From: an uncultured Collinsella sp.
Lineage (GTDB): Bacteria > Actinomycetota > Coriobacteriia > Coriobacteriales > Coriobacteriaceae
Direction of reading: 5' to 3'
NCBI GenBank assembly: GCA_902478835.1
Contig: CABSMU010000009.1
Location: forward strand, 2,214 to 66,213
Length of the DNA: 64,000 nt
Position numbers and translations under genes: made by a program
Shown here: positions 11,732-34,493 of the stretch, piece by piece
Layout: each line of letters starts with the position of its first letter
Numbering within the stretch: the stretch's first letter is position 1
The notes under the pieces: generated by a model
What the model was told of the DNA's origin: nothing
Databases searched by the model: none
Seen by the model: the letters and a program-made list of their open reading frames with translations, nothing else

Positions 11732-11788
11732 ATCTCAATCTGTAACAGATGCAGGGCAAAATCGGGTCCAAATGTTACAGATCAAGAC
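11732..11788. repeat. 57-nt palindromic unit, single copy
   Basis: ATCTCAATCTGTAACA-N25-TGTTACAGATCAAGAC. Confidence 0.85.
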
Positions 11789-11966
11789 AGAGGGGGATTT
11801 CCGTCCAGTCCAAACCAAATCCCTCAGTCTTCCTGCAATTTCGAACATGTGGCCTATAATGTTGCTTTGGTTACGCTATATATTGCGCAGCCATTTAATA
11901 CGTCGCCCACCGGGGCCATTAATTCCTATCGCCATATTGGCTAGGAAGCAATCAAAGGAGGTATCC

Positions 11967-12929
11967 GTGGCAGCAGAGACGCCTTGCTCGGTCCTCTATA
12001 ACGATATTCGCTCGTTCGGCGGTCTTAAACATCTCGAGATCGCCCGAATGCTCATCAATGGAAACTCTTATCTCGGCAGCACCCTGCTCGAGAAATGCTC
12101 TTCCAACCGCTCGTATCTCACCCGTTACATCGTCCATCGCAAGCCTGACCAGTGCGCGCCCGCCATCTACAGCGACTTTACCGTCACCACGCTCAACCTT
12201 TCCGCGGCAATCTGCAGCAAGCTCGGCGGCGGCGAGTCCGCCTATCGGGCAATCGCCGAGCACTATCGCGGTCCGGCCGCCGACGAAATGATGTCGGCTC
12301 TCGCCAGCTACAAGCTGGACAGCCGCCTATATGCAAATGCCCTCAATCGCATCGACAACTTTGACGGCAATGCCGTGCGCGAAAAAAGCACGCTCTTCTT
12401 GATGCTCTTTGTGGCAACGGGGGCGCTCGCCGATCCCGTTCAGGGCGTGGCCACCGTCGAGCGCTTTTGCGACAGCAAGACGGGCGGGCACTTTGGCACC
12501 ACCGAAACTACCGTCGGACGTGGCTTTATGAGCAGCCTGGAGCAGCCGCACGCCGTCGCTCCCAACCTCGGTCTGCTCAGAACCCATGCCGATAACTGCG
12601 CCGACATGCAAATCCATCCCCTCACACGCGATCCGCGCGGCACCGTGATTGGTTCTTTGCCCAAAACCTCGCCCAGCATCACCGATGTAGGCGCCGACGC
12701 CTCGCGCGAGCATCTTCGCATTTGGCTCGAGGGTGAGCACTGGTACGCCCAGGGCCTTGGATCGACCAACGGCACAGTGCTCGAATCGGGCGCGGGCGAC
12801 GGCGATATTGTGATTGAGCCGCCGCGCGACCAACGCGAGCCCGGCAAAGTCTATCCCCCCGTGGAAATCGCCAACAGCGACAGGCTCCATCTGGGTCTCT
12901 ACACGACATTCCTTGTCATTGTGGACTAG
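11967..12929 (+). CDS. FHA-domain protein with an N-terminal domain of unknown function
   Basis: C-terminal FHA signature (GTVIGS...VGADASREHLRIWLEGEHWYAQGLGSTNGTVL...IANSDRLHLG). Start set at GTG 11967, which is preceded by AAGGAGG; the ORF track opens at 11772 inside the repeat. Confidence 0.7.
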   Translation: MAAETPCSVLYNDIRSFGGLKHLEIARMLINGNSYLGSTLLEKCSSNRSYLTRYIVHRKPDQCAPAIYSDFTVTTLNLSAAICSKLGGGESAYRAIAEHYRGPAADEMMSALASYKLDSRLYANALNRIDNFDGNAVREKSTLFLMLFVATGALADPVQGVATVERFCDSKTGGHFGTTETTVGRGFMSSLEQPHAVAPNLGLLRTHADNCADMQIHPLTRDPRGTVIGSLPKTSPSITDVGADASREHLRIWLEGEHWYAQGLGSTNGTVLESGAGDGDIVIEPPRDQREPGKVYPPVEIANSDRLHLGLYTTFLVIVD

Positions 12930-13100
12930 CACGGACAGCGATCGGAAGACGGTCGCCGTCCGTCTTGCGTCTTCTGCCTTCTGCGTCGTAAACGACAATG
13001 CTCAGCGGTATACGTGGGCAGTGCGACTATCATGGTACTTTACCGATACCCGCACTGCTCGCGTATACGTGCGGCAACCCATGCCAGACAAAGGAACGCC

Positions 13101-15214
13101 ATGGATACTACCGATAGCGCCTATGGCGACAAACTCGTCCGTCTCGATACGTTCGATACCGCCGTGGCGGTCGACCCCAGCGCCGAGGACGACGCCAAAC
13201 GCCGGTTTATGACACTTATTCTCCAGACGGCCCACCGCAACAACGGCAACATCGGGCACGTGCTGCGCGCGACCAACACGAGCGGCGAGGTCTTTGCCGT
13301 CAAGCTGCTCAAGGACAACGTCATTCTCTCTGGCCAAGCCCCCGACCGCTCCGCCGAGCAATCGGCCGCGCACCTGGCCAACACCGCTGCGCTGTTTGAG
13401 GAGTACCGTCATCTGTGTACCGTCTCGCACCTGCGCGGATTTCCGCGCGTCTATGGCTACGGATCGTGCGAGGATGACCCGCTCATCCTCATGGAGTGGG
13501 TCGAGGGCACCTCACTCAAGCAGGCGCTGCCCCTGCTTCCTCACGACGCCTCGGGCGGGCTGACCACCCAGATGGTCGCCGCCGTCGGAAACGCCGTGCT
13601 TCGTGCGCTCTTGATGACCCAAGGCCTCGTGAATCCGGTCGTCCATCGCGACCTTTCGCCTGCCAATATCATGTTCCGCACCACCAGCCGAACGCTCGAG
13701 CAGCAGATTGCCGATTGCTCCTTTGACCCCTGCCTCATCGACATGGGCTCCGCGACCATGGCTCTCGGCGACGACACGATCACCCGGTGCGCCGACATCT
13801 GGCGCTTTGCCACGCCCGCATACGCCGCGCCCGAGATGCTCACGCAGGATATCGAAGGCATCGCGGCCCTTCGCCGTTCGCCGGCAATCGACGTCTATGC
13901 GCTTTCGAGCATTCTGTACCAGCTCTACAGCGGTCGCAAACCGTTTGACTTTGAGTCGACGGACGCCGCTGCAACCGGCTCGTTCTATCTCGTAAAGACC
14001 AAGACCAAGCCGGCACCGCTCGAGCCGCGCTGCGAGGGCGATGAAGCGCTCGTCCAAATCATCATGAAGGGTCTCTCAGTCGAGCAGTGCGATCGTCCCA
14101 CCGAGCAGCAGATGCTCGAGGTGCTCTCGGCATACCTCACCGATGCCGAATCCGAGGGCCGCGAAGGCACAGGAGACGAGGCCGCGATTGATATCGATTC
14201 TGGCACGCACCTTAAGGTCGACGTCGCCGGCGAGCGCGCACGAGAGATCCTGAATCAGGCCCGTCACGATGCCATGACCCGCCGCCGCTTTATTATCGGC
14301 TGCGATAGCGCCGCCGCTTTATTATCGGCGGCGCTATCGCAGCCGTTGCGGGGCTCAGCGTTATCGGGGCGGCAACCCATGGCTTTGGCATCCCCGACTA
14401 CCTTGACGGCATCCGCGGTTCACTTGACGACTACACCTGGGATCAGCTGCAGGAGATTTCGCTCAAGATTAAGGCCGCCGAGGCCCGTAGCGAGGCACGC
14501 GAGATTGCCAAGCGCTATCATCTGCTCGATGCCGATGGGCATATCCCCTATCCGTGTACCAAGCGTGTCACGCTCACCAACGGGCTGCAGGTTGGCGCGC
14601 AGCTTGTGGGCATCCGCCACGATGAGCTTCTGGACGGGACGGGCAAGGCCGGACTAACGTTTATGTTCGATGCGGGTATTGCCGAGCGCAACGCTGCGGC
14701 TGAACCGCCGAGCGCCGGCTGGGCAGATTGCGAGCTGCGGGAATGGCTCAACGGCGACGGCCTTAAGCTGCTGCCCAACGAGTTGCGCGCACTCATTAAA
14801 GGGGTCAAGAAGGTCTCGAACAATGTGGGCACCGCCAACAGCGCATCGTGCCTGAGCGAGTTGCCCGCAACCCTTTGGCTGCCCGCCATGGTCGAGCTGT
14901 GCGGTACGCAACCGCCCGATTCGTTTACCGAGGACTATCACTACCTGGCAGACATCTACAACGGCGAGGGCAAGGAGTATCAGCTCTTCCGCGAGCTCAA
15001 GGTAAGCCCGTATTCCACGAACGAGACGATGGTCCGCCAGTGGAAGGGCAAGGACACCTGTTGGTGGGAGCGCACGGTAAGCCCCGACACATCGGAGAGC
15101 GAAGGCACGCTCTATATGAACCGCGTGGGGCACGACGGCGACGTCTTTACGTACGCAACGCCTGCGGACAGCCCCAAGAAGCGGACTTGCGTGATCCCCG
15201 GATTCTGCATCTAG
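13101..15214 (+). pseudogene. Ser/Thr protein kinase - TM helix - extracellular DUF6273-like domain, disrupted by a 29-bp insertion at about 14300..14328
   Basis: Kinase motifs AVKLL, HRDLSPANIMF, DMGSA and YAAPE are in frame 0. After TRRRFIIG the frame becomes nonsense. Deleting 29 nt restores TRRRFIIGGAIAAVAGLSVIGAATHG (TM helix) and joins it to frame 2 (ORF 14606..15214), which carries CELREWLNG...LWLPAMVEL...WWERTVSP. The restored ORF would be 694 aa. Confidence 0.75.
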
Positions 15215-15256
15215 GGAGCGGGCGTCTTGCCGTGACGGGACCCCTCCCCGGCAATT

Positions 15257-15361
15257 GTCTCGATCTGTAACAGTTAGAGGTCATTTTCCCTGCTAGATGT
15301 TACAGATTGAGATGATTGGTTGGGACGGTCCATCGGCCAACCAATCATCTCAATCTGTAAC
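15257..15361. repeat. 57-nt palindromic unit (15257..15313), inner hairpin, and a solo left arm (15347..15361)
   Basis: GTCTCGATCTGTAACA-N25-TGTTACAGATTGAGAT, then GATTGGTTGG-N13-CCAACCAATC, then ATCTCAATCTGTAAC. Confidence 0.85.
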
Positions 15362-15389
15362 GAAATCTCATATATTATTTCTGTACTGG

Positions 15390-15419
15390 ACACCCCCAGG
15401 GGGTATGGGTGTATAGTAT
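15390..15419 (+). promoter_or_regulatory. CsoR-type operator overlapping a -10-like box upstream of copA
   Basis: ACACCCCCAGGGGGTAT (15390..15406) is a GC-rich pseudo-palindrome of the TACCC-N-GGGTA type bound by CsoR repressors. TATAGT lies at 15412..15417. csoR is encoded at the end of the same operon. Confidence 0.6.
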
Positions 15420-15464
15420 CGGATGGTTAACATTTCCGACACTACGTCACAGAAAGGAGAAGCC

Positions 15465-17807
15465 ATGGCTCAAGATAAGTTCGATGTGGGCGGCATGACG
15501 TGCGCCGCATGCCAAGCGCACGTGGACCGTGCCGTGAGCAAGCTCGACGGCGTCGAGAGCGTCGCGGTCAATCTGCTCGCCGGCTCTATGCTGGTGGACT
15601 ACGACCCCGCGCAGGTCTCCCCCGACGATATCTGCACCGCCGTCGACCGCGCGGGCTACTCGGCCTCGCCCGTCGATGTGGGCACCGGCGCCGCCGGCTC
15701 AAACGGCAGTGCACAAGCCAGGTCCGGCGCCGCCCATATGGAGTCGCCTACCAAAAAGCTGGAGGCCGCCGCCTCCGCCATGCGCACCCGCCTCATCGTC
15801 TCGATCGTATTCCTCATCCCACTGTTCTACATAGGCATGGGGCACATGCTTGGCTGGCCGCTACCCGGCATTTTCACCGACCGTACCCACAGCATGACGC
15901 TCGCGCTCACCGAGCTCGTCCTGCTCATCCCCATCGTCTACGTCAACGACGCGTACTTTATCAACGGGTTTAAATCGCTCGCGCACGGCGCGCCGACCAT
16001 GGACGCTCTCATCGCCGTCGGCGCCACCGCGTCGATCGCCTGGTCGCTCTATGCCATGTTTATCATGGCCGACCAGCTGGCCACAGGTCAGGTGCACGAG
16101 GCCATGATGACGAGCATGGACAACCTGTATTTTGAGAGCGCCGGCACCATCCTGTCGCTGGTCACCGTGGGAAAATACCTCGAGACACGCAGCAAATCCA
16201 AAACCGGCGGCGCTATCGAGGCGCTCGTCGACTTGGCACCCAAGACTGCGACCGTCGTTGCCGACGACGGCACCGAAACCACCGTCGACGTCGACAGTAT
16301 CCTTCCCGGCCAGGTCCTGCGCGTACGCCCCGGAGAGTCCATCCCCGTCGATGGCGTGGTGCTCGAAGGCAGCTCGGCCGTGGACGAGAGTGCGCTCACC
16401 GGCGAGTCCATCCCCGTGGAAAAGACCGCCAGCGACACCGTCAGCGCCGCCACCGTCAACCGTACCGGTTCGTTTACCTTCCGCGCCACGCGTGTGGGCG
16501 CCGACACGTCGCTCGCCAAGATTATCCAGCTCGTCGAGGACGCCAACGCCACCAAGGCGCCCATCGCCCGCATGGCCGACAAGGTCGCCGGCGTGTTCGT
16601 GCCCGTGGTGTTCGCAATCTCTGCCGTAACTTTTGTGGCATGGATGGTTTTGACCGGAAGCGTCAACGAAGCGCTCACCTCCGCCGTCGCCGTGCTGGTG
16701 ATCAGCTGCCCGTGCGCGCTGGGTCTGGCCACACCCGTCGCCATTATGGTCGGCACCGGCAAGGGCGCCGAGATGGGCATTCTGTTCAAGAGCGCCGAGG
16801 CGCTGGAGAATCTGCGCAGCGTGGGCACCGTGGTGCTCGACAAGACTGGCACCGTCACCCGCGGCAAGCCTGCCGTGACCGATATCGTGGTAGCCACGCG
16901 CGCTGACGGCTCGCCCGCCATGAGCGAAAAGGCGCTGCTCAAGCTGGCCGCCGCGCTGGAGCGCTCGAGCGAGCACCCGCTGGCCGAGGCGATTATGGCC
17001 GAGTGCGAAGCGCGCGGAATTGTCGCGCGCATGGTCGAGGACTTTGCCGCCGTGCCCGGACGAGGCGTTACGGCACGCGAGGGGCAGAATGTCATCGCAG
17101 CCGGCAACGTGCGCCTGATGGACGAGTTGGGCGTTACCGTGCCCGCGGGTCTTGCCGAGCAGTATGCCGCCGAAGGCAAGACGCCGCTGTTCTTTGCCAA
17201 GAACGGCGAGCTTGTCGGCACCATCGCCGTGGCTGACGAGGTCAAAGAAACGAGTGCCGAGGCCATCGCCGCGCTCCGCAAGCTCGGCGTCGACGTGCGC
17301 ATGCTCACCGGCGACAACCGCGTGACGGCCGAGGCCATCGCCCGCCGCGTGGGGCTGAGCAGCGAACAGGTCATCGCCGACGTCCTCCCCGCCGACAAGG
17401 AGCGCCACGTGCGCGAACTGCAGGATGCGGGCAGCAAGGTCGCCATGGTGGGCGACGGCATCAACGACTCCCCCGCCCTGGCGCGCGCCGACGTGGGCCT
17501 TGCTATCGGCACCGGCGCCGACATCGCCAAGGAGGGCGCCGACGTGGTACTCATGCGCAGCGATCTCATGGACGTCGCCCGTGCCATCGAGCTGTCACGT
17601 GCCACAATCCGCAACATCAAGCAGGACCTGTTCTGGGCGCTGTTCTACAACGGCATCGGCATTCCGCTGGCGGCGGGCGTGTTCTTCCCGCTCACCGGGT
17701 GGCAGCTCTCGCCGATGTTTGGCGCCGCGGCCATGAGCCTGTCGAGCGTCTGCGTCGTAAGCAATGCTCTGCGCCTGAAATCCTTTAAGCCTAAAGTGGC
17801 AAAATAA
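15465..17807 (+). CDS. copA: Copper-translocating P1B-type ATPase
   Basis: N-terminal HMA domain [16 protein letters not shown] motif ([11 protein letters not shown]), DKTGTVT phosphorylation site and [10 protein letters not shown]. Start set at ATG 15465, which has an AAAGGAGA RBS. Confidence 0.9.
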
Positions 17808-17954
17808 GCTCACCATAAAGTCCATTTAGAACGGGTTTTCCAGGTGCCCGAGATTGACCTGAAAGAGGAGCGACGCGTACTTTGGTACGCGAGCGACGGC
17901 TTGAAGGTCAAGGTCGGGTGCCTGGGAAAGCCGACACAACAGAGAGGAATATCC

Positions 17955-18176
17955 ATGCGTTTCACAATTAAGACTTCCGGCCTTATGTGCGGCCACTGCG
18001 ACGCCACCGTCGAGACGGCGTTGCTCAACGTGGCCGGCGTGACCGACGCCGACGCCGATCACGAGACCCAGACCGTCCAGGTGGAGTGCGCCGACACCGT
18101 GACCGCCGAGCAGCTCGCCGCCGCCGTCGAGGGCGCCGGCGAGAAGTTCCACGCCCTGTCCGTAACCGCCGCGTAA
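17955..18176 (+). CDS. copZ: Copper chaperone, heavy-metal-associated domain
   Basis: 73-aa protein with the MCGHC metal-binding motif. Start ATG 17955 has a GAGAGGAA RBS and lies inside ORF 17844..18176. Confidence 0.8.
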   Translation: MRFTIKTSGLMCGHCDATVETALLNVAGVTDADADHETQTVQVECADTVTAEQLAAAVEGAGEKFHALSVTAA

Positions 18177-18214
18177 CGACCCACGCGCACCCCGACCAGA
18201 AACGAGGACCCGCC

Positions 18215-18487
18215 ATGATGGCAGACCATAAATCGGTGACCCGCATGCTCAAGACGGCACGCGGTCAGATCGACGGCATCCTGCGGATGGTCGAGGAGGA
18301 CCGCTACTGCGTCGATATTTCCACGCAGCTCATGGCAACGCAGGCGCTCATTGCGCGCATCAACGCCGACGTGCTCAAGGCGCATATCGAGGGCTGCGTG
18401 ACCTCGGCAATCGAATCGGGCGACGAGGACCTCAAAGCCGCCAAGCTCGCCGAGATCGAACGCGTCGTCGACAAGCTCTCCAAGTAA
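18215..18487 (+). CDS. csoR: CsoR/RcnR-family metal-sensing repressor
   Basis: 90-aa MMADHKSVTRMLKTARGQIDGILRMVEEDRYCVDISTQLMATQALI...HIEGCV, giving the C-H-C ligand pattern of CsoR. Start is ATG 18215. Confidence 0.85.
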   Translation: MMADHKSVTRMLKTARGQIDGILRMVEEDRYCVDISTQLMATQALIARINADVLKAHIEGCVTSAIESGDEDLKAAKLAEIERVVDKLSK

Positions 18488-18531
18488 TTGGGGCATTGGG
18501 GACAGACTTCTTTGCACCGTCTTGGCGTTCC

Positions 18532-18578
18532 GGGGACAGGTATGTTTGCACCACATTGGTGCAGATTAACCTGTCCCC
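18532..18578. repeat. Nested hairpin repeat (GGGGACAGGT family), second copy
   Basis: GGGGACAGGTATGTTTGCACCACATTGGTGCAGATTAACCTGTCCCC. A degenerate half copy lies at 18495..18530. Confidence 0.8.
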
Positions 18579-18633
18579 CTTGCTCTAAATCGGGTATAAA
18601 GGCGTGCAGCATATCGAACGAAAGGCAATTTGC

Positions 18634-19107
18634 ATGAATGACTTTATGAAGGGTCGCAATGGTGCTGACGAGCTCACCATCGTGATGGGTTTTGCCGGCA
18701 TCGTCATCGCGATGATCGGATCGATGGCCCGCATCCAGTGGCTCAGCTGGATCGCCATCGCCGTCATCGTGATTGGCGTGCTGCGCGGCCTGTCCAAAAA
18801 TATCGATGCACGTCGCAAGGAGAACGACGCCTTTGTCGCCGGCTCGGCTAAGGTCCCCGGCTTGGGCAAGTTCGTCGCCAGCTTGGGCGGCGGGGCCGCA
18901 GCGGCCAGCACCTCACGCGCTGCCGGAACGAGCAAGGAAGACTTTGAGCGCGCCAAGCGTACGGCCAAGAAGATGTGGAAGGGCCGCAAAACTACGGCAT
19001 ACCTCAAGTGCCCCAACTGCGGCCAGATGCTCTCCGTCCCCAAGGGCAAAGGCAAGATCCGCGTCACCTGCCCCAAGTGCCACGCCAAGATGGAAACCCG
19101 CTCCTAG
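18634..19107 (+). CDS. Hypothetical membrane protein with a C-terminal zinc ribbon
   Basis: Two predicted TM helices, then CPNCGQ...CPKCH. Start at the MNDFMKG Met is uncertain. Confidence 0.5.
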   Translation: MNDFMKGRNGADELTIVMGFAGIVIAMIGSMARIQWLSWIAIAVIVIGVLRGLSKNIDARRKENDAFVAGSAKVPGLGKFVASLGGGAAAASTSRAAGTSKEDFERAKRTAKKMWKGRKTTAYLKCPNCGQMLSVPKGKGKIRVTCPKCHAKMETRS

Positions 19108-19169
19108 CGCCCGCACGCGGGACAAATTAATCAGGTTCGTTTGTCCCAAATCTTAAGTATTTGTTCGAT

Positions 19170-19208
19170 AAAAAAGCCGAGGCCTCGTGTTGAGACCTCG
19201 GCTTTTTG
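19170..19208. terminator. Bidirectional Rho-independent terminator
   Basis: AAAAAAGCCGAGG-cctcgtgttgaga-CCTCGGCTTTTTG, between convergent genes. Confidence 0.85.
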
Positions 19209-19240
19209 TATACGGCAACGGAGCTGCACCTTTGTCACCT

Positions 19241-20611: not shown

Positions 20612-20759
20612 ATCGAGCTCCTCCCTCACGATTAACTTGAACATTTGTCCATTATCACCCAATGCAGCGACCTAAAGTCGAGCATATCGGTTAACGGAGA
20701 AAAGGGAGGATATGGGGATAGAGAGGCCAGCACGGCGATGCCCCAGCCAGGTGCCAAAC

Positions 20760-20896
20760 GTCCTGATCTGTAACAGATAGACCGTCTTTAGCCTTCCAGA
20801 TGTTACAGATCGAGATCTTTTAACGGTAGCCAACCTTTTGTCTTGATCTGTAACAGTTACGAGGCCAAACGATCCCTTGTTGTTACAGATCGAGAC
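20760..20896. repeat. Array of 2 x 57-nt palindromic units, 80-bp period
   Basis: Units at 20760..20816 and 20840..20896. Confidence 0.9.
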
Positions 20897-20904
20897 AGTC
20901 CGCC

Positions 20905-21981
20905 TCAGCGCCCATACCACTGGCATCTCCACTCCTCAGCCAATTCAACCTGCCGAGGAATACCCGCCAGCCTCATTTTCTCGACTAGCTTCCCCGGGCC
21001 TTTGAGTTCGTTAAACGTAAACCGAAGCACCTTATGCCCGAGCATTGTCAGATGAGATTCCCGCTGACGCTCTGCCACGAATGGGTCAACCGACTCCCGA
21101 CCCTCGCCGCTCTGCAAGGTGTACTTCCCCTTTCCGTCGAGCTCGCCGATGACACACATCCCGTCCTCGAGCCGCCAAAAATAGTCGACACGAAACACCT
21201 GGCTCGGATCGAGCGGGTCGCGAAACTCCACCTGCAGCTCCGGAACCGGAAAGCCGTACGCAATAAAGAATGCTCGGAACCGAGACTCGCCGCCGTTTTC
21301 AGACAGCCCGTCCGCATACGACGCAATCACCTGTGCCCTGCGATACCCTCGCCTGCCCTCGCAATCGGCGCGGAGGCGCTCGCACAAATCCCCACGTGAT
21401 ACGCCTTTCGCCCGCAGTGCAGAATCGGCAATCGCCAACCCGTAGGAGAACGGCGCACGCAGTAGGCAATCCTCCACCATGCGCCAAAACGACGTCACCC
21501 GCACGCCATCAACATGCTCGAGTGCGCCCGCCATCTGCGGACGCAACAACCTGCACCCGCCGCTCAACGTCACCGAACAACCCGTCTTAACAAGAAAACG
21601 CGACCCAAGCAGATCATTCGGCACCTCCAGACCCCACAAAAGCGCCGCGTCATAACCCCAAAACGCCCAATCGGGATGAAACTCTGCAAGCCCTTTGATG
21701 GTACGCAGCGTTCGCTCCGCCGGCGTCAGTACACCCCAATCATGTTGAAAGCAGAACAAATACGGCTCGGGTTCCGCGATATCGTCGGTTCCAACATGAC
21801 GCCGCAGCCACATGAGCTCGGCATTGTCGTGTGTCACAAGCAGCACGCCTTGTTCAGCCGCCTCCGTGAGCCTGGCAAGCATCCTATTCCGCGCCAACGT
21901 GTTACGAGTCGTATGTTTGTGTTTGAGAACGGTATTAGGCACTTCCATCACCACCACATCGGACAAATGGACCATCGTCAC
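20905..21981 (-). CDS. Hypothetical protein with a C-terminal DUF559/Vsr-like (PD-(D/E)xK endonuclease-fold) domain
   Basis: C-terminus ESRFRAFFIAYGFPVPELQVEF...VDYFWRLEDGMCVIGELDGKGKY...ERQRESHLTMLGHKVLRFTFNEL resembles the DUF559 family common in Actinobacteria. The N-terminal part is unassigned. Confidence 0.55.
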   Translation of the reverse strand: MTMVHLSDVVVMEVPNTVLKHKHTTRNTLARNRMLARLTEAAEQGVLLVTHDNAELMWLRRHVGTDDIAEPEPYLFCFQHDWGVLTPAERTLRTIKGLAEFHPDWAFWGYDAALLWGLEVPNDLLGSRFLVKTGCSVTLSGGCRLLRPQMAGALEHVDGVRVTSFWRMVEDCLLRAPFSYGLAIADSALRAKGVSRGDLCERLRADCEGRRGYRRAQVIASYADGLSENGGESRFRAFFIAYGFPVPELQVEFRDPLDPSQVFRVDYFWRLEDGMCVIGELDGKGKYTLQSGEGRESVDPFVAERQRESHLTMLGHKVLRFTFNELKGPGKLVEKMRLAGIPRQVELAEEWRCQWYGR

Positions 21982-22001: not shown

Positions 22002-22219
22002 GTCTTGATCTGTAACAGGAAGACCGATTTTTGGACTGTAGATGTTACAGATTGAGACATTCCCCCCAGCCAGGTGCCAAACGTCTCGATCTGTAACAGT
22101 TAGACGTTCTCCAGGCCCCTAAACGTTACAGATTTAGACAAACCAGCGGCGCCCAAGCATTCGTCTCGTTCTGTAACAGGTAGACCGGTTTTTTGCCCCC
22201 AAACGTTACAGATCGAGAC
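22002..22219. repeat. Array of 3 x 57-nt palindromic units, 80-81-bp period
   Basis: Units at 22002..22058, 22083..22139 and 22163..22219. Confidence 0.9.
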
Positions 22220-22259
22220 AAAAAGGCAAAAGGCAAGGCAGGCGACAACTACCCATCCC

Positions 22260-22967
22260 CTACTCCCACTCCTGCTCGTAGATATTGAGCGACTTTACGT
22301 ACCGCCCCTGGGCGCCCATGATGTCGCGGACCAGACGCAAGAAGAAGCTGATGCACGAGGTGTCAAAGCCGTCCTGCAGGTCCTCCGGATGCACCGCACC
22401 CGGCCCATCGACCGCCGTATCGCTCAGCCGCGCGATGTCATACAGGTAGAGCTGTCCCGCCGTAAGCCAGACATCGTCGACGCAGGCGAGGCGCACCGCA
22501 ATCGCGCCGTCACTCCAGTGCTCCTTCTGCACGATATGCGGATCGTAGACATCAAAGCGATGATCGGTGCGCGTGTCCTTCAGCACGACCATGCCGGACG
22601 CAGGATTCTTGTCCAAAATGCCAAAGCGCGAGAAATACTGCGTGTCGCGTACCTGCTCGAGCCGCTTGAGCGAGGCAGACGAAAGCGATGCCGGCGGCTC
22701 GTCAACATATAGCTCGAGCAGCGTTTTGCCATGGCGATAGGGGCGCTCAAACAGCAGCCAATCGGTAAACGCCATGTTGTAGGCCATGATTTCGTTTTGC
22801 GAAGGCTCAGTGCAATAGCTGAGCCACGGGTCGACAATAATCTCGAACTGTTCGCGCGCCGGCTCCAGGAATTGAAACTTCCGCAGCATCCAAAAGTGAG
22901 CCATGTCGGCAATATCGTTGCCGACGGCTTCAGCCAGCTCTGCTCGGTCAAAAGCGTGGTCAATCAT
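22260..22967 (-). CDS. Hypothetical protein
   Basis: 235-aa ORF with coding-like composition. I recognise no motif. Confidence 0.5.
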   Translation of the reverse strand: MIDHAFDRAELAEAVGNDIADMAHFWMLRKFQFLEPAREQFEIIVDPWLSYCTEPSQNEIMAYNMAFTDWLLFERPYRHGKTLLELYVDEPPASLSSASLKRLEQVRDTQYFSRFGILDKNPASGMVVLKDTRTDHRFDVYDPHIVQKEHWSDGAIAVRLACVDDVWLTAGQLYLYDIARLSDTAVDGPGAVHPEDLQDGFDTSCISFFLRLVRDIMGAQGRYVKSLNIYEQEWE

Positions 22968-23280
22968 GGCATCCTCCTCAAACTGATGGACCTCAATTTG
23001 AGCTTACGAGGAGGGTGGGCAGCCACGACCAGCACGGGCAAAATAGGCCTCCGGCTGCAAACCAGATGCTGACCAAACACTTGACGAAAAGCTTGACCGA
23101 AAATGCGCGCCGCAACAAAACCGCAGGTAAACATCGACGGCCAACCCGCCCTTTTGAGCCAGATGCCCGCAGCCACCACAGAAACAACAGGTGACTGCAG
23201 CCCAAGAAGTCGACAAATGAACACCCGTACGTCGACAAACGAGCAAACTGCTCGCAAATCCGCAAGGAGTGTCCCCGAAT

Positions 23281-23340
23281 GCCGACAGAAAAGGAACGTC
23301 CCTAACTGTCGGCACTTAGGGACGTTCCTTTTGTGCCGGC
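23281..23340. repeat. Hairpin of the GGAACGTCCC repeat family
   Basis: CCGACAGAAAAGGAACGTCCCTAA-N10-TTAGGGACGTTCCTTTTGTGCCGG (22/24 complementary). Half copies lie at 7703..7728 and 57630..57653. Confidence 0.8.
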
Positions 23341-23391
23341 AGTTAGGGACAGCCCTTGCCGATTCGATTGTTGAATATCTCCGTGACTACT

Positions 23392-24873
<1,482 letters not shown>

Positions 24874-24878
24874 GGCAC

Positions 24879-27800
24879 TTACGCCTCCTTCTTGGTCGAA
24901 GCAACAGAGCTGGCGGCGGGCACAGCACCAGCGACACCACCCGCCACATCGAAGCGAGCGACATCCGCGGCACTCGCGCGACCGGTCACAATGTCAAACG
25001 CCAGCTCCTCGGCCTGCGCATGCGTCTTGCCGACGGCCTCGGCGGCGGCGACAATCGCCAGCACGCGCTCATACTCGGTCGGAATGACCTTCACAAAGTG
25101 CTTACTCATCGTCTCAAAGCTGTAGAGCAGCTTGATGCCGCGTGGGCTCTGTGTCGCGTCCACGTGCTCCTGGATGAGCTCGCGAATCTGCGCCAGCTCG
25201 CCGGCCGTCGGGGCCTTGAGCTCAACGCTCTCGTGGTTCACGCGGGCATCGAGCGTGCCGTACTGGTCAAAGACATAGGCCACGCCACCCGTCATGCCGG
25301 CGGCAAAGTTCTGCCCGACCTCGCCCAGGATGAGCGCCAGGCCGCCCGTCATGTACTCACAGCCGTGGTTGCCGCAGCCCTCGACCACCACGGTGGCACC
25401 GGAGTTGCGCACGCCAAAGCGCTGGCCGGCCAGGCCGTTGATGAAGCCACGGCCGCTCGTGGCGCCAAAGAACGCAACGTTGCCCACGATGATGTTTTCG
25501 TCGAACTTATAGGTCGCATGCGGGTTGGGGCGCACCGACACCTCGCCGCCCGAAAGGCCCTTGCCAAAGTAGTCGTTGGCGTCGCCGCACACGTTGAGCG
25601 TAATGCCGCGCGGCAGGAAGGCGCCAAAGCTCTGACCGGCCGATCCATCGCAATCGATGGTGATGGAGCCGGCGGGCAGGCCCTCGGGATGTGCCTTGGT
25701 CACCGCGTTACCCAGGATGGTGCCCACGCAGCGGTTGACGTTGGCGATATCGGCGCGGAAGCGAATCGGACGCAGATGTGCGCGGGCGTCGGCCGTGTAG
25801 GGCACGAACAGCGTGGAGTCGAGCGTCTTGTCGAGCTCGCTGTCCGCGGCCATCTGCGGCAGGAAGTGACGACCGTCGGCACCCGGGATGTGGGCACCAA
25901 ACTCACAGGTCGCACTTGCCAGCACGGGCGACAGATCGAGCAGGTTGGCCTTACGGTTGCCCGGGACCTCGATCTGGCGCAAGCACTCGGGATGGCCGAC
26001 CATCTCGTCGACGGTGCGGAAGCCCAGGCTCGCCATGACCTCGCGCAGCTGCTCGGCAACAAAGAGCATAAAGCGCTCGACGTGCTCGGGCTTGCCGCGG
26101 AAGCCGCGACGCAGGCGGCAGTTTTGCGTGGCGATGCCGGCGGGGCAGGTATCCTGCTGGCAGTCGCGCTGCATGAGGCAGCCCATCGAGATGAGCGGCA
26201 TGGTCGCAAAGCCAAACTCCTCGGCGCCCAGCAGGCAGGCGACGGCAACATCGGTGCCGTCCATGAGCTTGCCGTCAGCCTCGAGCACCACGCGTGAGCG
26301 CAGGCCGTTTTGCAGCAGCGTCTGTTGAGCCTCGGCAAGACCGAGCTCCAGCGGCAGACCGGCGTGCCAGATAGAGTCGCGCGCAGCGGCACCCGAGCCG
26401 CCGTTGTGGCCGCTGATCAAGATCTTGTCGGCAGCACCCTTGGCCACACCGGTGGCGATGGTGCCGACGCCCGCCTCACTGACCAGCTTGACCGACACGC
26501 GCGCGCCGGGGTTGGCGTTCTTAAGGTCGAAGATGAGCTCGGCCAGGTCCTCGATAGAGTAGATGTCGTGGTGCGGCGGTGGCGAGATCAGGCCGATGCC
26601 GGGCGTGGACTGACGGACCTCGGCGATCCAGGGGTAGACCTTCTTGCCGGGTAGGTGACCGCCCTCGCCAGGCTTGGCGCCCTGGGCCATCTTAATCTGA
26701 ATCTCGAAGGCGCTGCAAAGATAGCGGCTCGTCACGCCAAAGCGCGCGCTTGCCACCTGCTTGATCGCGGAGTTCTTGGAGTCGCCGTTGGCCAGCGGGG
26801 TCTCGCGACGCGGGTCCTCGCCGCCCTCGCCCGAGTTGGAGCGTCCGTGCAGGCGGTTCATAGCGATAGCCATGCACTCGTGCGCCTCTTTGCTGATGGA
26901 GCCGTACGACATGGCGCCGGTGTTAAAGCGGCGGACGATGTTGAGCGCGGGCTCGACCTCGTCGAGCGAAACCGGCGTGCGGCCGCTGGCATCAAAGTCG
27001 AGCAAGTCGCGCAGGCGCACGGCACGGCCGGTACGGTGCAGACGGGCGCTGTACTCCTTAAAGGTGTCGTAGCTGTCCTCACGGCAGGCGGTCTGCAGCA
27101 AGTAGACAGTCTGAGGGTCGATCAGGTGATCCTCGCCGCCGAGCGGGCGCCACTTGGTCAGACCCAGCGTGGGCAGCTGATCGGGAGCCGGGCTCTTAAG
27201 GATGGCGAGCGCGGCGTCGTAGCGCTCGTTTTGCTCGCGCTCAACGTCCTCGACACCCATACCGCCCACACGGCTCACCGTGCCGGCGAAGTACGCGTTG
27301 ACGAACTCCGGCGTAAAGCCCACGGCCTCGAAGATCTGCGCCGAATGGTAGCTCTGCACCGTGGAGATGCCCATCTTGGACATGATGGAGACGATGCCGG
27401 CGGTCGCAGCCTTGTTGTAGTTGGCGATGCCCTGCTCGGCCGTCACGTCCAGGTCGCCGTGCGCCGCCAGATCGCGGATGCACGCATGTGCGTTGTACGG
27501 ATAGATGCCGCTCGCGGAGTAGCCCACCAGTGCCGCAAAGTCGTGCGGAGACACGGCGTCGCCGCACTCCACCACGATATCGGCAAAGGTACGCACGCCG
27601 GCGCGGATCAGGTGGTTGTGCACGCAGCCCACGGCGAGCAGCGAGGGCACAGGGACCTCGCCCACCGCAGCACGGTCGCTCAGCACCACAATGTTCACGC
27701 CGTCGCGGACCGCGGCCTCGACGTCCTCGGCAAGCTGTTTGAGCGCAGCCTGCAGCGCGCCCTCACCCGCATCACGGCGGTAGACGGCACGGAACCGGCG

Positions 27801-29573
27801 GGTCTTAAAGCCAACACGGTCGATGGCACAAATGCGGTCAAACTCCCCCTCGTTGAGCAGCGGGCGCTCCAGACGCACCAGCTGGCAGGCCGTGCGGGAA
27901 TCCTCGAGCAGGTTGCCGTGGTTGCCCAGGTAGAGCGTGGTCGAAGTCACCATGTGCTCGCGCAGGGCATCGATCGGAGGATTCGTGACCTGAGCGAACA
28001 GCTGATAGAAGTAGTCAAAGAACGAGCGCGTCTTCTTGGACAGGCAGGCCAGCGGCGCATCGATACCCATCGAGGCGAGCGGGGCCTTGCCCTGCTGGGC
28101 CATGGGGCGCACGACCTCGTCAACATCATCCCAGTGATAGCCGAGCTTGGCCATGCGCACGGCGGCGGGCACCTCGGCGTCCTCGGCGGGCGCGGGCGCG
28201 GCGGGCTTGTCGAGCGCGTCGACGGTCAGCGTCTCCTCGGCAATCCAATCACGGTAGGGCTTTTCCTTGGCGTAGCGGGCGCGCAGCTCGTCGTTGTAGA
28301 TCACGCGGCCGCGGGCAAAGTCGACCTCGAGCATCTGGCCCGGTCCCAGACAGCCGCTCGTCAGGATGTTCTCGGGGCGCACCTCGATGGTGCCAACCTC
28401 GCTCGCCAGCATAAAGCGGCCGTCGCGCGTCACGTAGTAGCGAGCGGGGCGCAGGCCGTTACGGTCGAGGGCGGCACCCAGGGTACGGCCGTCGGTAAAG
28501 GCGATGGCCGCCGGACCGTCCCACGGCTCCATGAGCATGGACTGGTAGGCGTCGTAGGCGCGGCGCTCCTCACTCAGGTTATCGTTGTGGTCCCACGGCT
28601 CGGGCAGCAGCATGGACGCGGCACGCGTGAGCGGACGACCGTTCATGACCAAGAATTCAAGCACGTTGTCCAAAATCGCGGAGTCGGAGCCCTCGCGGTT
28701 GATGATGGGCATCACGCGCTCAAGATCGTGCTGCAGCACGGGGCTGTACAGGTTGGGTTCGCGGGCGCGAATCCAGTTGACGTTGCCCTTGAGGGTGTTG
28801 ATCTCGCCGTTGTGGATGATAAAACGGTTGGGGTGCGCGCGCTCCCAGCTGGGCGTGGTGTTGGTGGAGTAGCGCGAGTGGACGAGCGCCGCGGCCGTTT
28901 TGACGGCGGCGTCGTTGAGGTCGATGAAGAAGCGGCGCATCTGCGTGGCCACAAGCATGCCCTTGTACACGATGGTGCGCGAGCTCATGGAGCACACATA
29001 GAAGATCTTGTCGCGCAGGGCAAACTCGGCGTCGGCCTTCTTTTCGATGGTGCGGCGGCACACGTACAGGCGACGCTCGAAGGCATCGCCGGCGGGCGTG
29101 TCGTCGGGGCGGCCCAGGAAGGCCTGCAGGATAGTGGGCATGCAGGCACGCGCCGTCTCACCCAGGTCGTGCGGATCGACCGGCACCTCACGCCAAAAGA
29201 GCAGCGGCACGCCGGCCTCGGCGCAACCCTCCTCAAACACGCGGCGGGCATCCTCTACGCCCTTGTCATCCTGCGGAAAGAACAGCATGGCGACACCATA
29301 GTCGCCCTCTGCCGGCAGAATCTGGCCGCACTTTTGGGCCTCTTTACGGAAAAAGTGATGCGGAACCTGGAACAGGATACCGGCACCGTCGCCGGTATTC
29401 TTCTCGAGTCCCGTGCCGCCGCGGTGCTCCAAGTTAACCAGAATGGACAGCGCGTCATCCAGAATCTGGTGATGGCGCTCACCGTTGATATCGGCAAGCG
29501 CGCCGATGCCACATGCATCATGGTCGAATTCGGGGCGATAAAGGCCCTGCTGCTGAGCGGAATCTGCCTGCAT
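24879..29573 (-). CDS. gltB: Glutamate synthase large subunit
   Basis: 1564 aa. N-terminal amidotransferase domain (HDACGIGALADI), FMN/3Fe-4S central domain and GXGXG C-terminal domain. Confidence 0.95.
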   Translation of the reverse strand: MQADSAQQQGLYRPEFDHDACGIGALADINGERHHQILDDALSILVNLEHRGGTGLEKNTGDGAGILFQVPHHFFRKEAQKCGQILPAEGDYGVAMLFFPQDDKGVEDARRVFEEGCAEAGVPLLFWREVPVDPHDLGETARACMPTILQAFLGRPDDTPAGDAFERRLYVCRRTIEKKADAEFALRDKIFYVCSMSSRTIVYKGMLVATQMRRFFIDLNDAAVKTAAALVHSRYSTNTTPSWERAHPNRFIIHNGEINTLKGNVNWIRAREPNLYSPVLQHDLERVMPIINREGSDSAILDNVLEFLVMNGRPLTRAASMLLPEPWDHNDNLSEERRAYDAYQSMLMEPWDGPAAIAFTDGRTLGAALDRNGLRPARYYVTRDGRFMLASEVGTIEVRPENILTSGCLGPGQMLEVDFARGRVIYNDELRARYAKEKPYRDWIAEETLTVDALDKPAAPAPAEDAEVPAAVRMAKLGYHWDDVDEVVRPMAQQGKAPLASMGIDAPLACLSKKTRSFFDYFYQLFAQVTNPPIDALREHMVTSTTLYLGNHGNLLEDSRTACQLVRLERPLLNEGEFDRICAIDRVGFKTRRFRAVYRRDAGEGALQAALKQLAEDVEAAVRDGVNIVVLSDRAAVGEVPVPSLLAVGCVHNHLIRAGVRTFADIVVECGDAVSPHDFAALVGYSASGIYPYNAHACIRDLAAHGDLDVTAEQGIANYNKAATAGIVSIMSKMGISTVQSYHSAQIFEAVGFTPEFVNAYFAGTVSRVGGMGVEDVEREQNERYDAALAILKSPAPDQLPTLGLTKWRPLGGEDHLIDPQTVYLLQTACREDSYDTFKEYSARLHRTGRAVRLRDLLDFDASGRTPVSLDEVEPALNIVRRFNTGAMSYGSISKEAHECMAIAMNRLHGRSNSGEGGEDPRRETPLANGDSKNSAIKQVASARFGVTSRYLCSAFEIQIKMAQGAKPGEGGHLPGKKVYPWIAEVRQSTPGIGLISPPPHHDIYSIEDLAELIFDLKNANPGARVSVKLVSEAGVGTIATGVAKGAADKILISGHNGGSGAAARDSIWHAGLPLELGLAEAQQTLLQNGLRSRVVLEADGKLMDGTDVAVACLLGAEEFGFATMPLISMGCLMQRDCQQDTCPAGIATQNCRLRRGFRGKPEHVERFMLFVAEQLREVMASLGFRTVDEMVGHPECLRQIEVPGNRKANLLDLSPVLASATCEFGAHIPGADGRHFLPQMAADSELDKTLDSTLFVPYTADARAHLRPIRFRADIANVNRCVGTILGNAVTKAHPEGLPAGSITIDCDGSAGQSFGAFLPRGITLNVCGDANDYFGKGLSGGEVSVRPNPHATYKFDENIIVGNVAFFGATSGRGFINGLAGQRFGVRNSGATVVVEGCGNHGCEYMTGGLALILGEVGQNFAAGMTGGVAYVFDQYGTLDARVNHESVELKAPTAGELAQIRELIQEHVDATQSPRGIKLLYSFETMSKHFVKVIPTEYERVLAIVAAAEAVGKTHAQAEELAFDIVTGRASAADVARFDVAGGVAGAVPAASSVASTKKEA

Positions 29574-29701
29574 CGCGATCCTCCCCTAGATATTAGACAG
29601 TCAGTTGAATAGGCATACTAGGAGCATCGCCGGCCCGTTGTGTTTCCCACCCGTTTCGAAACAATCGCGTAACGCACGCCGGCCATCAACGTCTTGCTAT
29701 C

Positions 29702-29766
29702 AAACGTGTACGTCAGCCTCCAAACATGTCGAAATTTGACATCTTTGGAGGCTGACGTACACGTTT
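29702..29766. repeat. 65-nt near-perfect palindrome upstream of gltB
   Basis: AAACGTGTACGTCAGCCTCCAAA-c-ATGTC-gaaattt-GACAT-c-TTTGGAGGCTGACGTACACGTTT. The outer arms are 23 bp and perfect; the inner arms are 5 bp. Confidence 0.9.
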
Positions 29767-29922
29767 TAGTGCAGGGACAGCCGGCACATATGCATCCAAC
29801 CCCTTTGAATTATTCTGGAAACGAGGGCCACGCAGACTTTTGCATGATGCGACTCGACACCGCAGATCTCAAGGGCGGCAACAAGGCGCCCAAGTTCGGC
29901 TTGTAAGCTCACCGCTTCAAAC

Positions 29923-30139
29923 ATCTCAATCTGTAACAGGAGGAACCGATTTTGGCGCCTAGATGTTACAGATTGAGATTTTCTGCGGGACGGTTTTGGC
30001 TTGTCTCGATCTGTAACACGAAGGGCCGGTTTTGGCGGCAAACTGTTACAGATCGAGACATTCCATAGAACCATTTCTTCCTGTCTCGATCTGTAACACC
30101 TAGGCCCAATTTCCATCCCTAGTTGTTACAGATCGAGAC
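29923..30139. repeat. Array of 3 x 57-nt palindromic units, 80-bp period
   Basis: Units at 29923..29979, 30003..30059 and 30083..30139. Confidence 0.9.
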
Positions 30140-30260
30140 ATTTCGGCAGCCCCCTTTCACCATCCCATTCAATACAACAATTTTGTTAGTCTTGGTTAAC
30201 TTTTTGGCCTAAAACGGGTATCCTTTGCGGCGTCAAGTAAACGGCACGCAGGAGCGCACC

Positions 30261-31517
30261 ATGCTCAACCATCTCAAACAACACTTTGGCTCCCGACGCA
30301 CCGGTGGTCACGGAGGCCTAGACATTGCGCGGCATATCGGCCCCGGGCTGCTCGTGACCGTCGGCTTTATCGACCCGGGCAACTGGGCCTCCAATATGGC
30401 CGCGGGCTCGCAGTTTGGCTACGCGCTGCTGTGGATCGTCACGCTGTCCACGATTATGCTCATCGTGCTGCAGCACAACGCGGCGCACCTGGGTATCGCC
30501 ACGGGCGCCTGCCTTGCCGAGGCCACGACACGTTACCTCCCCCGCTTCGTCGGGCGCACGGTGCTCGCCAGTGCCTATCTCGCGACCATCGCCACCGCCA
30601 TGGCCGAGGTCCTGGGCGGCGCGATTGCCCTTCAAATGCTCTTTGGGCTGCCCGTGCGCGCGGGCTGTGTCATCGTGGCGGCAGTATCGATGGCGATGCT
30701 CATGACGAACTCCTACAAGCATGCCGAACGCTGGATCATCGCCTTCGTAGGCGTGGTAGGACTCTCGTTTTTGGCCGAGCTTGCACTAGTCAAGGTCGAC
30801 TGGCCGCAAGCCGCCGCAAGCTGGATCACGCCCAGTATGCCCACTGGCTCTGCCGCGATTATCGTGAGTGTCCTGGGTGCGGTCGTTATGCCACACAACC
30901 TTTTTCTGCACTCCGAGGTCATCCAATCCATGCACTTCGAAGGCCAAGGCGAGCAGGTTATCGAAGAACGTCTGCGCTACGAGCTCTTCGACACGCTCTT
31001 TTCGATGGGCGTGGGCTGGGCAATCAACTCGGCCATGGTCATCCTGGCCGCAACGACCTTCTTTGCGCACGGCATGGTCGTAGACGACCTCGCCGTCGCA
31101 GCGGCCACGCTCTCCCCCATTCTGGGCCCGGCGAGCTCGACCATCTTTGCGGTAGCGCTGCTGTTCGCGGGACTATCGAGCAGCGTGACAGCGGGCATGG
31201 CGGCGGGAACCATCACTGCGGGCATGTTCGACGAGGAATACGATATCCACGACCGACATTCCTCGATCGGGGTGGCGGCCTGTTTCGTCGGCGCAGTGAC
31301 GGCGTGCCTGGTCGTCCCAAATCCTTTTGAAGGTCTCATCTGGAGTCAGGCACTGCTGTCGCTTCAACTGCCGATTACGGTCTTTGTGCTCATACGGCTC
31401 ACCAGTTCACCCCGCGTCATGGGCAAATTCGCCAACTCGCGTCCACTCAACGCGCTGCTTGTAGGGATCGGTGCCATCGTGACGATTCTCGATGTCGTGT
31501 TGTTGACAGGGATGTAA
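30261..31517 (+). CDS. mntH: Nramp-family divalent metal (Mn2+/Fe2+) transporter
   Basis: DPGNWASNMAAGSQFGY and MPHNLFLHSE are signature Nramp motifs; about 11 TM segments. Start at ATG 30261 has an AGGAG RBS. Confidence 0.9.
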   Translation: MLNHLKQHFGSRRTGGHGGLDIARHIGPGLLVTVGFIDPGNWASNMAAGSQFGYALLWIVTLSTIMLIVLQHNAAHLGIATGACLAEATTRYLPRFVGRTVLASAYLATIATAMAEVLGGAIALQMLFGLPVRAGCVIVAAVSMAMLMTNSYKHAERWIIAFVGVVGLSFLAELALVKVDWPQAAASWITPSMPTGSAAIIVSVLGAVVMPHNLFLHSEVIQSMHFEGQGEQVIEERLRYELFDTLFSMGVGWAINSAMVILAATTFFAHGMVVDDLAVAAATLSPILGPASSTIFAVALLFAGLSSSVTAGMAAGTITAGMFDEEYDIHDRHSSIGVAACFVGAVTACLVVPNPFEGLIWSQALLSLQLPITVFVLIRLTSSPRVMGKFANSRPLNALLVGIGAIVTILDVVLLTGM

Positions 31518-31544
31518 TGGGACGGGGCACCTACCCAGGCAAAC

Positions 31545-31840
31545 GTCTCGATCTGTAACAGGAAGACCCGCTTTTGATGTCTAGATGTTACAGATCGAGA
31601 TCATTCCGAGGGACAGCTCCGTTTGTCTCAATCTGTAACACGTAGACCCCGTTTTCACTGTTAGATGTTACTGATTGAGATCTTTTGCCGGACGGTTTTG
31701 GTTTGTCTCGATATGTAACAAGTGGGCCCAATTTCCACTTCTAGATGTTACAGATCGAGACATTTCTTCAGCTCCAACCTTTTGTCTTAATCGGTAACAG
31801 ATAGACCCGTTTTGAGCCGTTAGATGTTACAGATTTAGAC
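31545..31840. repeat. Array of 4 x 57-nt palindromic units, 79-80-bp period
   Basis: Units at 31545..31601, 31625..31681, 31705..31761 and 31784..31840. Confidence 0.9.
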
Positions 31841-34476: not shown

Positions 34477-34493
34477 ATATGTAGCAAATGCAA

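Follow-up and report, generated by a model that had tools for sequence, protein, structure and literature searches.

Dispersed palindromic repeats are common in bacteria, and the protein that recognises them is known for few families, namely the REP-associated tyrosine transposase (RAYT) for REP sequences and, recently, SsnA for NTS repeats. RAYT was tied to REP by the repeats that flank its gene (PMC3333891), and SsnA to NTS by homologues in many taxa that are flanked on both sides by lineage-specific hairpin repeats (PMC11893778). AbiEi and Rv2827c bind inverted repeats upstream of their own genes, with one monomer per arm and with bending of the DNA, and Rv2827c occupies four tandem inverted repeats (PMC7319586). 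Here we describe a 64-kb stretch of the genome of an uncultured Collinsella sp. (contig CABSMU010000009.1; hereafter the window), in which a 57-bp palindromic unit, consisting of two inverted 16-bp arms around a 25-bp loop, forms phased arrays at six sites. The repeat marks a whole, very abundant genus of human-gut Actinomycetota and can be tied by comparison to one candidate gene, which lies between two of the arrays and encodes a 358-aa protein, p358. Our best reading of the sequences, to which we give about even odds, is that p358 recognises the arms as its binding sites and that these have become dispersed over the genome after the fashion of a REPtron (REP/BIME-RAYT; BIME, bacterial interspersed mosaic element).

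A search of the window for the 16-nt arm GTCTCGATCTGTAACA, allowing up to 3 mismatches, returned 29 matches against 0.27 expected by chance, and none of 100 shuffled sequences attained 29. The matches resolve into 14 units, each of which spans 57 nt and comprises an arm, a 25-nt loop, and the inverted arm, and into a solo arm at 15347-15362, with unit starts 79-81 bp apart within arrays; the original prediction had listed the same 14 units and solo arm with the same spacing, and its coordinates matched exactly. Tandem Repeats Finder gave a period of 80 for 31545-31764, within array F. A nhmmer profile built from 325 unique units and run on the 64 kb at E ≤ 10 found nothing beyond the 14 units and the solo arm, in keeping with the earlier statement that the window holds no further copies. 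The arms alternate in orientation within the phased arrays, so the likeness to BIMEs and REPINs (REP doublets) that had been proposed for their architecture is borne out. Intergenic placement was likewise upheld, as all units lie between genes, at six sites (A to F) from 11.7 to 31.8 kb. This includes unit A, because the start of the open reading frame (ORF) 11772-12929 that overlaps it is spurious and the annotated orthologue starts ~180 bp downstream of the unit. Within the 16-nt arm there is no self-complementarity, and the ends of the unit are GTCTC and GAGAC. There is no conserved GTAG or CGTC tetranucleotide tag at the repeat ends; GTAG is confined to the loop and is present in less than half of the units, with G at loop position 2 in 97/325.

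We scanned 185,579 species genomes with ATCTGTAACA-N23-27-TGTTACAGAT and obtained at least 120 loci, nearly all of them from Collinsella; the counts of geometry, sites, and conservation given below refer to these listed loci and the window. The repeat family is genus-wide in Collinsella, and its geometry is unusually strict. The gap between paired arms is 25 in every one of the at least 120 loci listed. The distance from left to right arm is 41 in 360/363 cases, corresponding to the 25-bp loop, and that from right to left arm is 39 or 40 in 225/237 (39 in 138, 40 in 87, and 38 in 8), corresponding to a linker of 23-24 bp, and the arrays nearly always have the form (><)n, with n = 1-8. Altogether, 151 arrays group into at least 24 genomic sites, six of which are those of the window. 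Confinement to a 20-kb stretch, which the original prediction had regarded, in combination with uniform copy numbers, as an argument against mobility, is thus not what the genus presents. All representative sites examined lie between called genes, in contexts that are convergent (8), divergent (7), or tandem (8) among 23 sites, and the flanking genes are unrelated housekeeping genes, among them those for EF-Tu, RF3, aconitase, GlmS, Dxs, and glycogen phosphorylase. A regulon, suggested by the copper ATPase, CsoR, and Nramp genes among the neighbours, was considered and abandoned given the diverse housekeeping genes that flank the other sites.

A further sample was the C. aerofaciens TSDC17.2-1.1 record NZ_OY725717.1, positions 1-899693 (our loci L155-L172), which PLSDB lists as "plasmid 6". 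Its ribosomal protein operons, together with rpoBC, recA, ftsK, and dnaE, show it to be a 900-kb part of the chromosome. It contains 14 arrays with 27-28 units, which all lie in the interval 402-877 kb, whereas the first 400 kb have none. Three of these arrays, at 751-761 kb, follow paralogous lacG/phosphotransferase system (PTS)/LacI gene sets and look as if they had been duplicated together with them. By our estimate, a genome carries about 25-30 sites with some 70 units in all. A phage or plasmid origin found no support: there was no phage match, viral-contig matches were mostly single chance ones, and the sole "plasmid" match was the mislabelled chromosome piece. Our literature searches found no description of this repeat, and Actinobacteria go unmentioned in a survey of REP families (PMC3733652). 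Regularly spaced short repeats with segments of constant length also recall CRISPR arrays; unlike these, however, the Collinsella arms alternate, the segments between them carry conserved motifs rather than unique sequences, no cas genes adjoin the arrays, and there are dozens of arrays of 1-8 units each.

What is conserved in the repeat is sequence and spacing, not base pairing. Across 351 unique units, arm positions 2-4 and 7-16 are 93-100% conserved, whereas positions 1, 5, and 6 vary through CpG transitions. At the corresponding pairs (1/57, 5/53, and 6/52), the left and right arm vary independently, G-T counts equal A-C counts, and the covariation score is 0.101 compared with 0.103 in shuffled alignments, with 335/500 shuffles scoring at least as high. 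In a half-swap control, chimeras assembled from halves of different units folded as well as real units, and units weakened from -19 to -7.5 kcal/mol (as single-stranded DNA [ssDNA]) are still present at conserved sites. The loop has a constant order of elements (G.TAGa, a G/C-rich segment, an A-tract, a second G/C-rich segment, and CTAGA). Its central triplet is AAA in 125 units, TTT in 114, ATT in 35, and AAT in 15, that is, 289/325 units with the tract in either orientation, and TpA steps are nearly absent at the loop centre. The lengths of loop and linker are fixed even though their unconstrained positions are near random among paralogous units. A constraint on sequence and spacing that is indifferent to pairing points to recognition of double-stranded DNA (dsDNA) by a protein rather than to a structured RNA or a hairpin under selection. 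Helical phasing of the A/T tracts at 10 bp was considered as a further regularity and rejected, as the hand-worked spacings do not fit.

These observations bear directly on the possibility that the arrays act at the RNA level, as mRNA 3'-end stabilisers, insulators, or tandem small RNAs, the last of which the original prediction had offered as its alternative. In favour of this, strong folding is expected of any transcript that runs through an array (z = -7.5 for array F), genes are followed by arrays in many cases, and the two genes on either side of array D probably share a transcript. Nevertheless, there is no covariation and no strand asymmetry of G-U versus A-C, the arms are invariant although pairing alone would permit compensatory change, and the A-run and T-run at the loop centre, which would matter in RNA, are interchangeable. 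No Rfam family matched at gathering thresholds, and at E ≤ 10 the arrays and the composite locus gave only chance microRNA or snoRNA matches; Collinsella-1, the motif that the original prediction had singled out for comparison, gave no match even at E ≤ 10. A scan for promoters and terminators found no enrichment of either at the units, which are followed by ATTC or AAAC and not by a T-run, and 7/23 sites are divergent promoter regions. Each unit has a polarity, set by its loop ends (G..TAGA ... CTAGA), that is uniform within clusters and independent of the direction of genes and transcription (compare site B with sites C and D). We therefore regard a role in RNA as highly improbable, and small RNAs in particular find no backing in covariation or in promoter and terminator signals. 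A link between polarity and the direction of replication was also sought and dismissed, there being no relation to GC skew across sites or along the 900 kb.

Nearly all polymorphism within the arms consists of CpG transitions, at arm positions 1, 5/6, and 16/17, in which GTCTCGAT becomes either GTCTCAAT or GTCTTGAT, the outer junction turns from C|G into C|A, and TAACA|G turns into TAACG. GATC is kept in 347/748 arms and TCGA in 326/748. The pattern suggests CpG hypermutability, perhaps through cytosine methylation; the 900-kb C. aerofaciens record includes a dcm gene.

The likely partner of the repeat, which the original prediction missed, is the unannotated gene between arrays C and D, and it is not a Y1 transposase. 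The p358 gene (20905-21981, minus strand) encodes a protein whose N-terminal part is tentatively AbiEi-like and whose C-terminal part is tentatively DUF559-like. On its stop side lies array C, between an amidohydrolase gene and p358, with units at 20760-20816 and 20840-20896 and its final arm 8 bp from the p358 stop codon; on its start side lies array D, between p358 and the unannotated upstream gene p235 (22260-22967, minus strand), with units at 22002-22058, 22083-22139, and 22163-22219, the first of them starting 20 bp upstream of the p358 start codon. Bracketing at 8 bp and 20 bp recurs in the window and in 10/10 syntenic species, and the number of units varies across species from 1 to 4 at site C and from 2 to 5 at site D. 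The gene is single-copy in the 900 kb of C. aerofaciens. The p358 family is large (at least 4,492 clusters at 50% identity), and 61 homologues share as invariant residues D186, an E-N-G-G-E-S..R block, D266, E280-x-D282-G-x-x-K286, E304, R307, and R320; from this pattern and the weak match to DUF559 (E 0.15), the C-terminal part may be a PD-(D/E)XK nuclease domain. A second Collinsella protein, a paralogue 35% identical to p358, matches the PADLOC AbiEi models (E 4e-9), and Pfam AbiEi_4 is matched by 2/61 homologues. A profile of the p358 family found nothing among PDB sequences. No DUF1814 (AbiEii) gene lies next to p358 in the window or at the homologue loci. At one of these loci (L173), a p235 homologue and a p358 homologue share a 4-nt overlap beside gltD, which is the gene order of the window minus array D, and p235 may be an operon partner of p358.

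Following the logic that linked RAYT to REP and SsnA to NTS, we inspected the flanks of the Collinsella paralogue and of 8 homologues at 33-43% identity. The paralogue has its own modules of 116-132 nt on both sides, with the arm GAGCGTGGATAATC. In 4/8 homologues (L176, L177, L179, and L181), the same lineage-specific palindromic module stands on both sides of the gene and consists of two direct arms ~30 nt apart, a centre, and two inverted arms; the two modules of L179 are near-identical 134-bp copies. A further 3/8 homologues have a module on one side, so that 7/8 are flanked by a module of their own lineage. The repeats adjoin the homologue and occur essentially nowhere else at these loci, the best seed having 7-9 matches in the flanks compared with 2-3 in shuffled sequence. 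The L177 arm, TGTCTCGTTTATGGGGTAACA, has both ends in common with the Collinsella arm, TGTCTCGATCTGTAACA. The association between gene and repeat thus holds across lineages.

Three points are our inference from these data: p358 would bind the arms, DNA would be cut or recombined by its C-terminal domain, and the dispersed arrays would have a cellular role. The arms are proposed as p358 sites because their anatomy fits the binding mode of AbiEi, in that the arms are independently constrained in sequence, the gap is fixed and holds a bendable A-tract, the sites come as series of pairs, and the first arm lies 20 bp upstream of the gene. Each 16-bp arm would be a sequence-specific dsDNA site read by the AbiEi-like winged-helix part of p358, and the 57-bp unit would be an inverted pair of such sites, 25 bp apart around a central A-tract, on which two arm-bound monomers could touch across bent DNA, as AbiEi and Rv2827c do on their own operators; an array would then be a series of such site pairs. 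Originally, the protein would have controlled its own gene, a suggestion that follows from the private palindromic modules that flank homologues elsewhere. In Collinsella, the module would have spread before the radiation of the genus to about 25-30 intergenic sites, and arrays would gain and lose 80-bp modules as phased direct arm copies recombine unequally or slip against one another, with the DUF559-like part possibly supplying the cutting or recombination. Close parallels are the operators of the AbiEi/Rv2827c type IV toxin-antitoxin systems (PMC7319586; PMC3985639), which are likewise inverted repeats beside the gene and private to each protein. Unlike AbiEi, p358 has no adjacent AbiEii toxin partner in the window or at the homologue loci and has a DUF559-like C-terminus, modules stand on both sides of its gene, and its sites in Collinsella would be arrayed and dispersed genome-wide.

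Several observations weigh against p358 as the binder of the arms. The protein itself has no significant match in Pfam or PADLOC (DUF559 appears only at E 0.15), so that its assignment to AbiEi rests on the paralogue and on 2/61 homologues; the AlphaFold model is unusable (predicted local distance difference test score 43.6). The arms are 16 bp long with a 25-bp gap, whereas AbiEi operators measure 23 bp with gaps of 3-13 bp. Among the homologues, 3/8 have a module on one side of the gene (L173, L174, and L178), and L180 has no flanking module. Bracketing by itself is not specific, because an Nramp gene, an AAA ATPase gene, and lac gene sets are bracketed by arrays as well. Finally, between close species the arms diverge by 3.4-3.7%, not clearly more slowly than intergenic DNA outside the repeats (5.0%). 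That the arms are under purifying selection in situ had at first seemed evident from 3.4% divergence in arms versus 12-17% in loops and spacers, and the intergenic value of 5.0% weakened this case; as rates between close species are similar, selection on the arms is evident only over the deep, paralogous time scale. The high divergence of loops and spacers (7-21%) probably reflects turnover of units.

The same evidence for dsDNA recognition would be expected if the arrays bound another Collinsella protein, such as a nucleoid-associated, topology, or segregation factor, and the position of p358 were a coincidence. Gyrase and IHF act at the BIMEs of E. coli, the arrays are unevenly distributed (14 in 400-900 kb versus none in 0-400 kb), and the diverse housekeeping neighbours have no common theme. 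Another binder would, however, leave unexplained why the paralogue and 7/8 distant homologues of p358 have modules of their own, and we consider it unlikely.

If p358 does read the arms, it may also act on them. It could found a third class of single-copy DNA enzyme with its own palindromic repeat, after RAYT-REP (HUH) and SsnA-NTS (GIY-YIG), nicking or recombining at the arms through the putative PD-(D/E)XK domain; we regard this as less likely than not. Nicking or recombination by p358 would then drive both the spread of the arrays and their unit-by-unit turnover, and might influence how Collinsella, a genus with comEC and dprA, recombines, is transformed, or expresses genes locally. The parallel with the NTS/dRS3-SsnA system of Neisseria (PMC11893778) extends to non-random clustering, bracketing of genes, and lineage-specific repeats on both sides of homologues. 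The two differ in that p358 combines AbiEi-like and DUF559-like parts whereas SsnA is a single-domain GIY-YIG protein, in that the DNA recognised would be double-stranded here and is single-stranded there, and in that p358 is known from sequence. Were p358 binding correct, a large protein family would gain a function, a private operator would be seen to have escaped and colonised a genome, and the sites could serve as strain-typing markers, by virtue of their 80-bp copy-number variants, or as sequence-specific DNA tools.

The original prediction had looked to RAYTs for mobilisation, and a REP/REPIN family mobilised and maintained by such a Y1 HUH transposase acting on single-stranded hairpins has several points in its favour: the units are palindromic, dispersed, and strictly intergenic, the arms alternate as in BIMEs, copy number is polymorphic, and Collinsella does have Y1 transposases, in the form of an IS200. 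The absence of a RAYT gene from the window, which had been noted at the outset, was confirmed by empty tblastn and phmmer searches with E. coli RayT, which were equally empty over 0.85 Mb of DNA flanking the arrays in over 100 Collinsella assemblies, and no RAYT is annotated in the 900 kb of C. aerofaciens; ~60% of a Collinsella genome lies outside this search. The genes nearest to the arrays at the sites examined include no transposase. The sole Y1 gene in the 900 kb, a tnpA at the orthologous site F, was examined as a candidate RAYT and rejected, since it belongs to an ordinary 767-bp, two-copy IS200 that has unrelated end hairpins of its own and is not flanked by units. Moreover, the GTAG/CGTC tag is not conserved, hairpin pairing is not kept, and single arms are not self-complementary. 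On the DNA searched, a RAYT-driven family is thus very unlikely.

The REPtron (PMC3333891; PMC3733652) offers a close comparison. Both systems combine intergenic arrays of palindromes with alternating orientation, fixed linker classes, and polymorphic copy number with a single-copy gene flanked by the repeats it is thought to recognise. In contrast to the REPtron of Proteobacteria, the Collinsella candidate is not a Y1/HUH protein, the arms are not hairpins, the GTAG/CGTC tag is lacking, and pairing is not kept; the host belongs to the Actinomycetota, and copies are few (an estimated 25-30 or so sites and ~70 units). Nor is the Collinsella arm itself a stem-loop, unlike those of BIMEs, which bind gyrase, IHF, or Pol I. 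The description of the repeat as a BIME-like family with unusually strict geometry stands even if p358 binding fails.

Copy number, which the original prediction had named for comparison between related strains, is polymorphic between species by whole 80-bp modules. Besides sites C and D, this holds for site A, a single unit at 11732-11788 between a DEAD-box helicase gene (minus) and an FHA gene (plus) (1-2 units in orthologues); for site B, between a kinase/DUF6273 gene and a copper-type P-ATPase gene, with a unit at 15257-15313 and the solo arm (plus strand, 3 mismatches), which makes a perfect tail-to-tail inverted repeat of 25 nt when taken with the preceding arm and its flank (1-5 units); for site E, in the divergent region between gltB and the Nramp gene, with units at 29923-29979, 30003-30059, and 30083-30139 (1-3 units); and for site F, downstream of the Nramp gene (Nramp/rubredoxin-like), with units at 31545-31601, 31625-31681, 31705-31761, and 31784-31840 (from a solo arm up to 4 units, 0.5-4). 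Mappable sites are occupied in all genomes sampled, with one exception: the locus L120 has 2.5 units where C. aerofaciens has only a hairpin, and this is the sole presence/absence polymorphism seen. Since occupancy is near-universal while unit counts differ, the sites are old and the arrays dynamic. The idea that the L120 array was copied recently from another site was rejected, its best match being only 75% identical, and exchange of cassettes between bracketing arrays was not seen.

Whole-unit variation of this kind resembles a variable number tandem repeat, and together with the 16-bp terminal inverted repeats, the ancient sites with their single presence/absence polymorphism, and arms that diverge between close species about like other intergenic DNA, it would suit decaying miniature inverted-repeat transposable elements of a DDE insertion sequence (IS), or a neutral minisatellite with neither function nor a partner in trans. 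In the 900 kb, however, no element with these ends was found among IS21, IS30, IS256, IS3, IS110, IS1249, IS1595, and IS200, and the arms adjoin no annotated transposase except that of the IS200 with its own ends. Target-site duplication is not evident, and the sole empty site differs from its occupied counterpart by a duplicated hairpin rather than a short duplication. Neutral decay would not keep the arm sequence, the 25-bp loop, and the A-tract while loop and linker positions become near random, nor does it explain the private modules of the p358 relatives. We consider such an origin distinctly unlikely.

At site F of C. aerofaciens TSDC17.2-1.1 (L155:22741-23507 compared with window 31840-31909), a solo arm and loop are left, and the 767-bp IS200 (tnpA WP_055287554.1) has inserted a few bases past these; a second copy of this IS200, 99.5% identical, lies at 533 kb of the same record. 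The locus L093 has an arm-only allele of site F without the IS.

The hairpin at the empty site belongs to a second type of element, which we call H and which reads AAA-CCACCACAAAGG-GGACAGGCA (or its complement)-CCTTTGTGGTGG-TTT and looks like a terminator. H lies 7-85 nt from the arrays at 11/24 sites, with distance modes of 10-16, 22-24, and 33-34 nt. It faces the array in a consistent direction (15 versus 4), and several sites have H on both sides. At the sole empty array site, a single H replaces H-array-H. Given this association, the arrays are parts of mosaic intergenic elements, as are BIMEs and NIMEs (neisserial intergenic mosaic elements). As in NIMEs and the BIME mosaics of E. coli, conserved inverted arms bracket variable segments that fall into few sequence classes and are combined with a second type of motif, here H; in Collinsella, by contrast, the segments are strictly 25 and 23-24 bp long, and the sequences are unrelated. 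Examples of H are found at L120:5960-6260 and L112:3990-4300 and at L075, L039, L014, L010, L034, and L035. NZ_OY725717.1 has 13 copies in 900 kb (at 252193, 733846, and 11 other positions), and the window has none.

The window contains further repeats. Another palindrome, TGGTGC..GGGGACAGGT../..ACCTGTCCCC..GCACCA, has two copies, at 7749-7813 and 18532-18578; the motif GGGGACAGG makes up the loop of H as well, and GGGACRG is seen again in a number of array linkers, such as those at 31605-31612 and 29987-29993. Two long hairpins are unrelated to the 57-bp units, one at 29695-29773 with 39-nt arms, upstream of gltB, and the other at 23257-23364 with 52-nt arms, between p235 and gltD; the segment 29680-29850, which holds the gltB hairpin, has no counterpart in L002 and does not align in several other loci or in the C. 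aerofaciens record. Inside the kinase/DUF6273 gene, a G+C-rich 29-bp tandem repeat (14280-14345) has one more copy in the window than in C. aerofaciens TSDC17.2-1.1, where the gene is a single coding sequence of 695 aa; the extra copy shifts the frame and thereby splits the gene into ORFs 13014-14657 and 14606-15214, which could be a pseudogene or a phase-variable switch. A segment of ~4.9 kb (2923-7807) is without counterpart at the orthologous place in C. aerofaciens TSDC17.2-1.1. An L31-Coriobacteria ribosomal leader (54533-54568), which scores 35.1 bits where the gathering threshold is 33, and a pair of tRNA genes (34403-34567) are ordinary features of the window.

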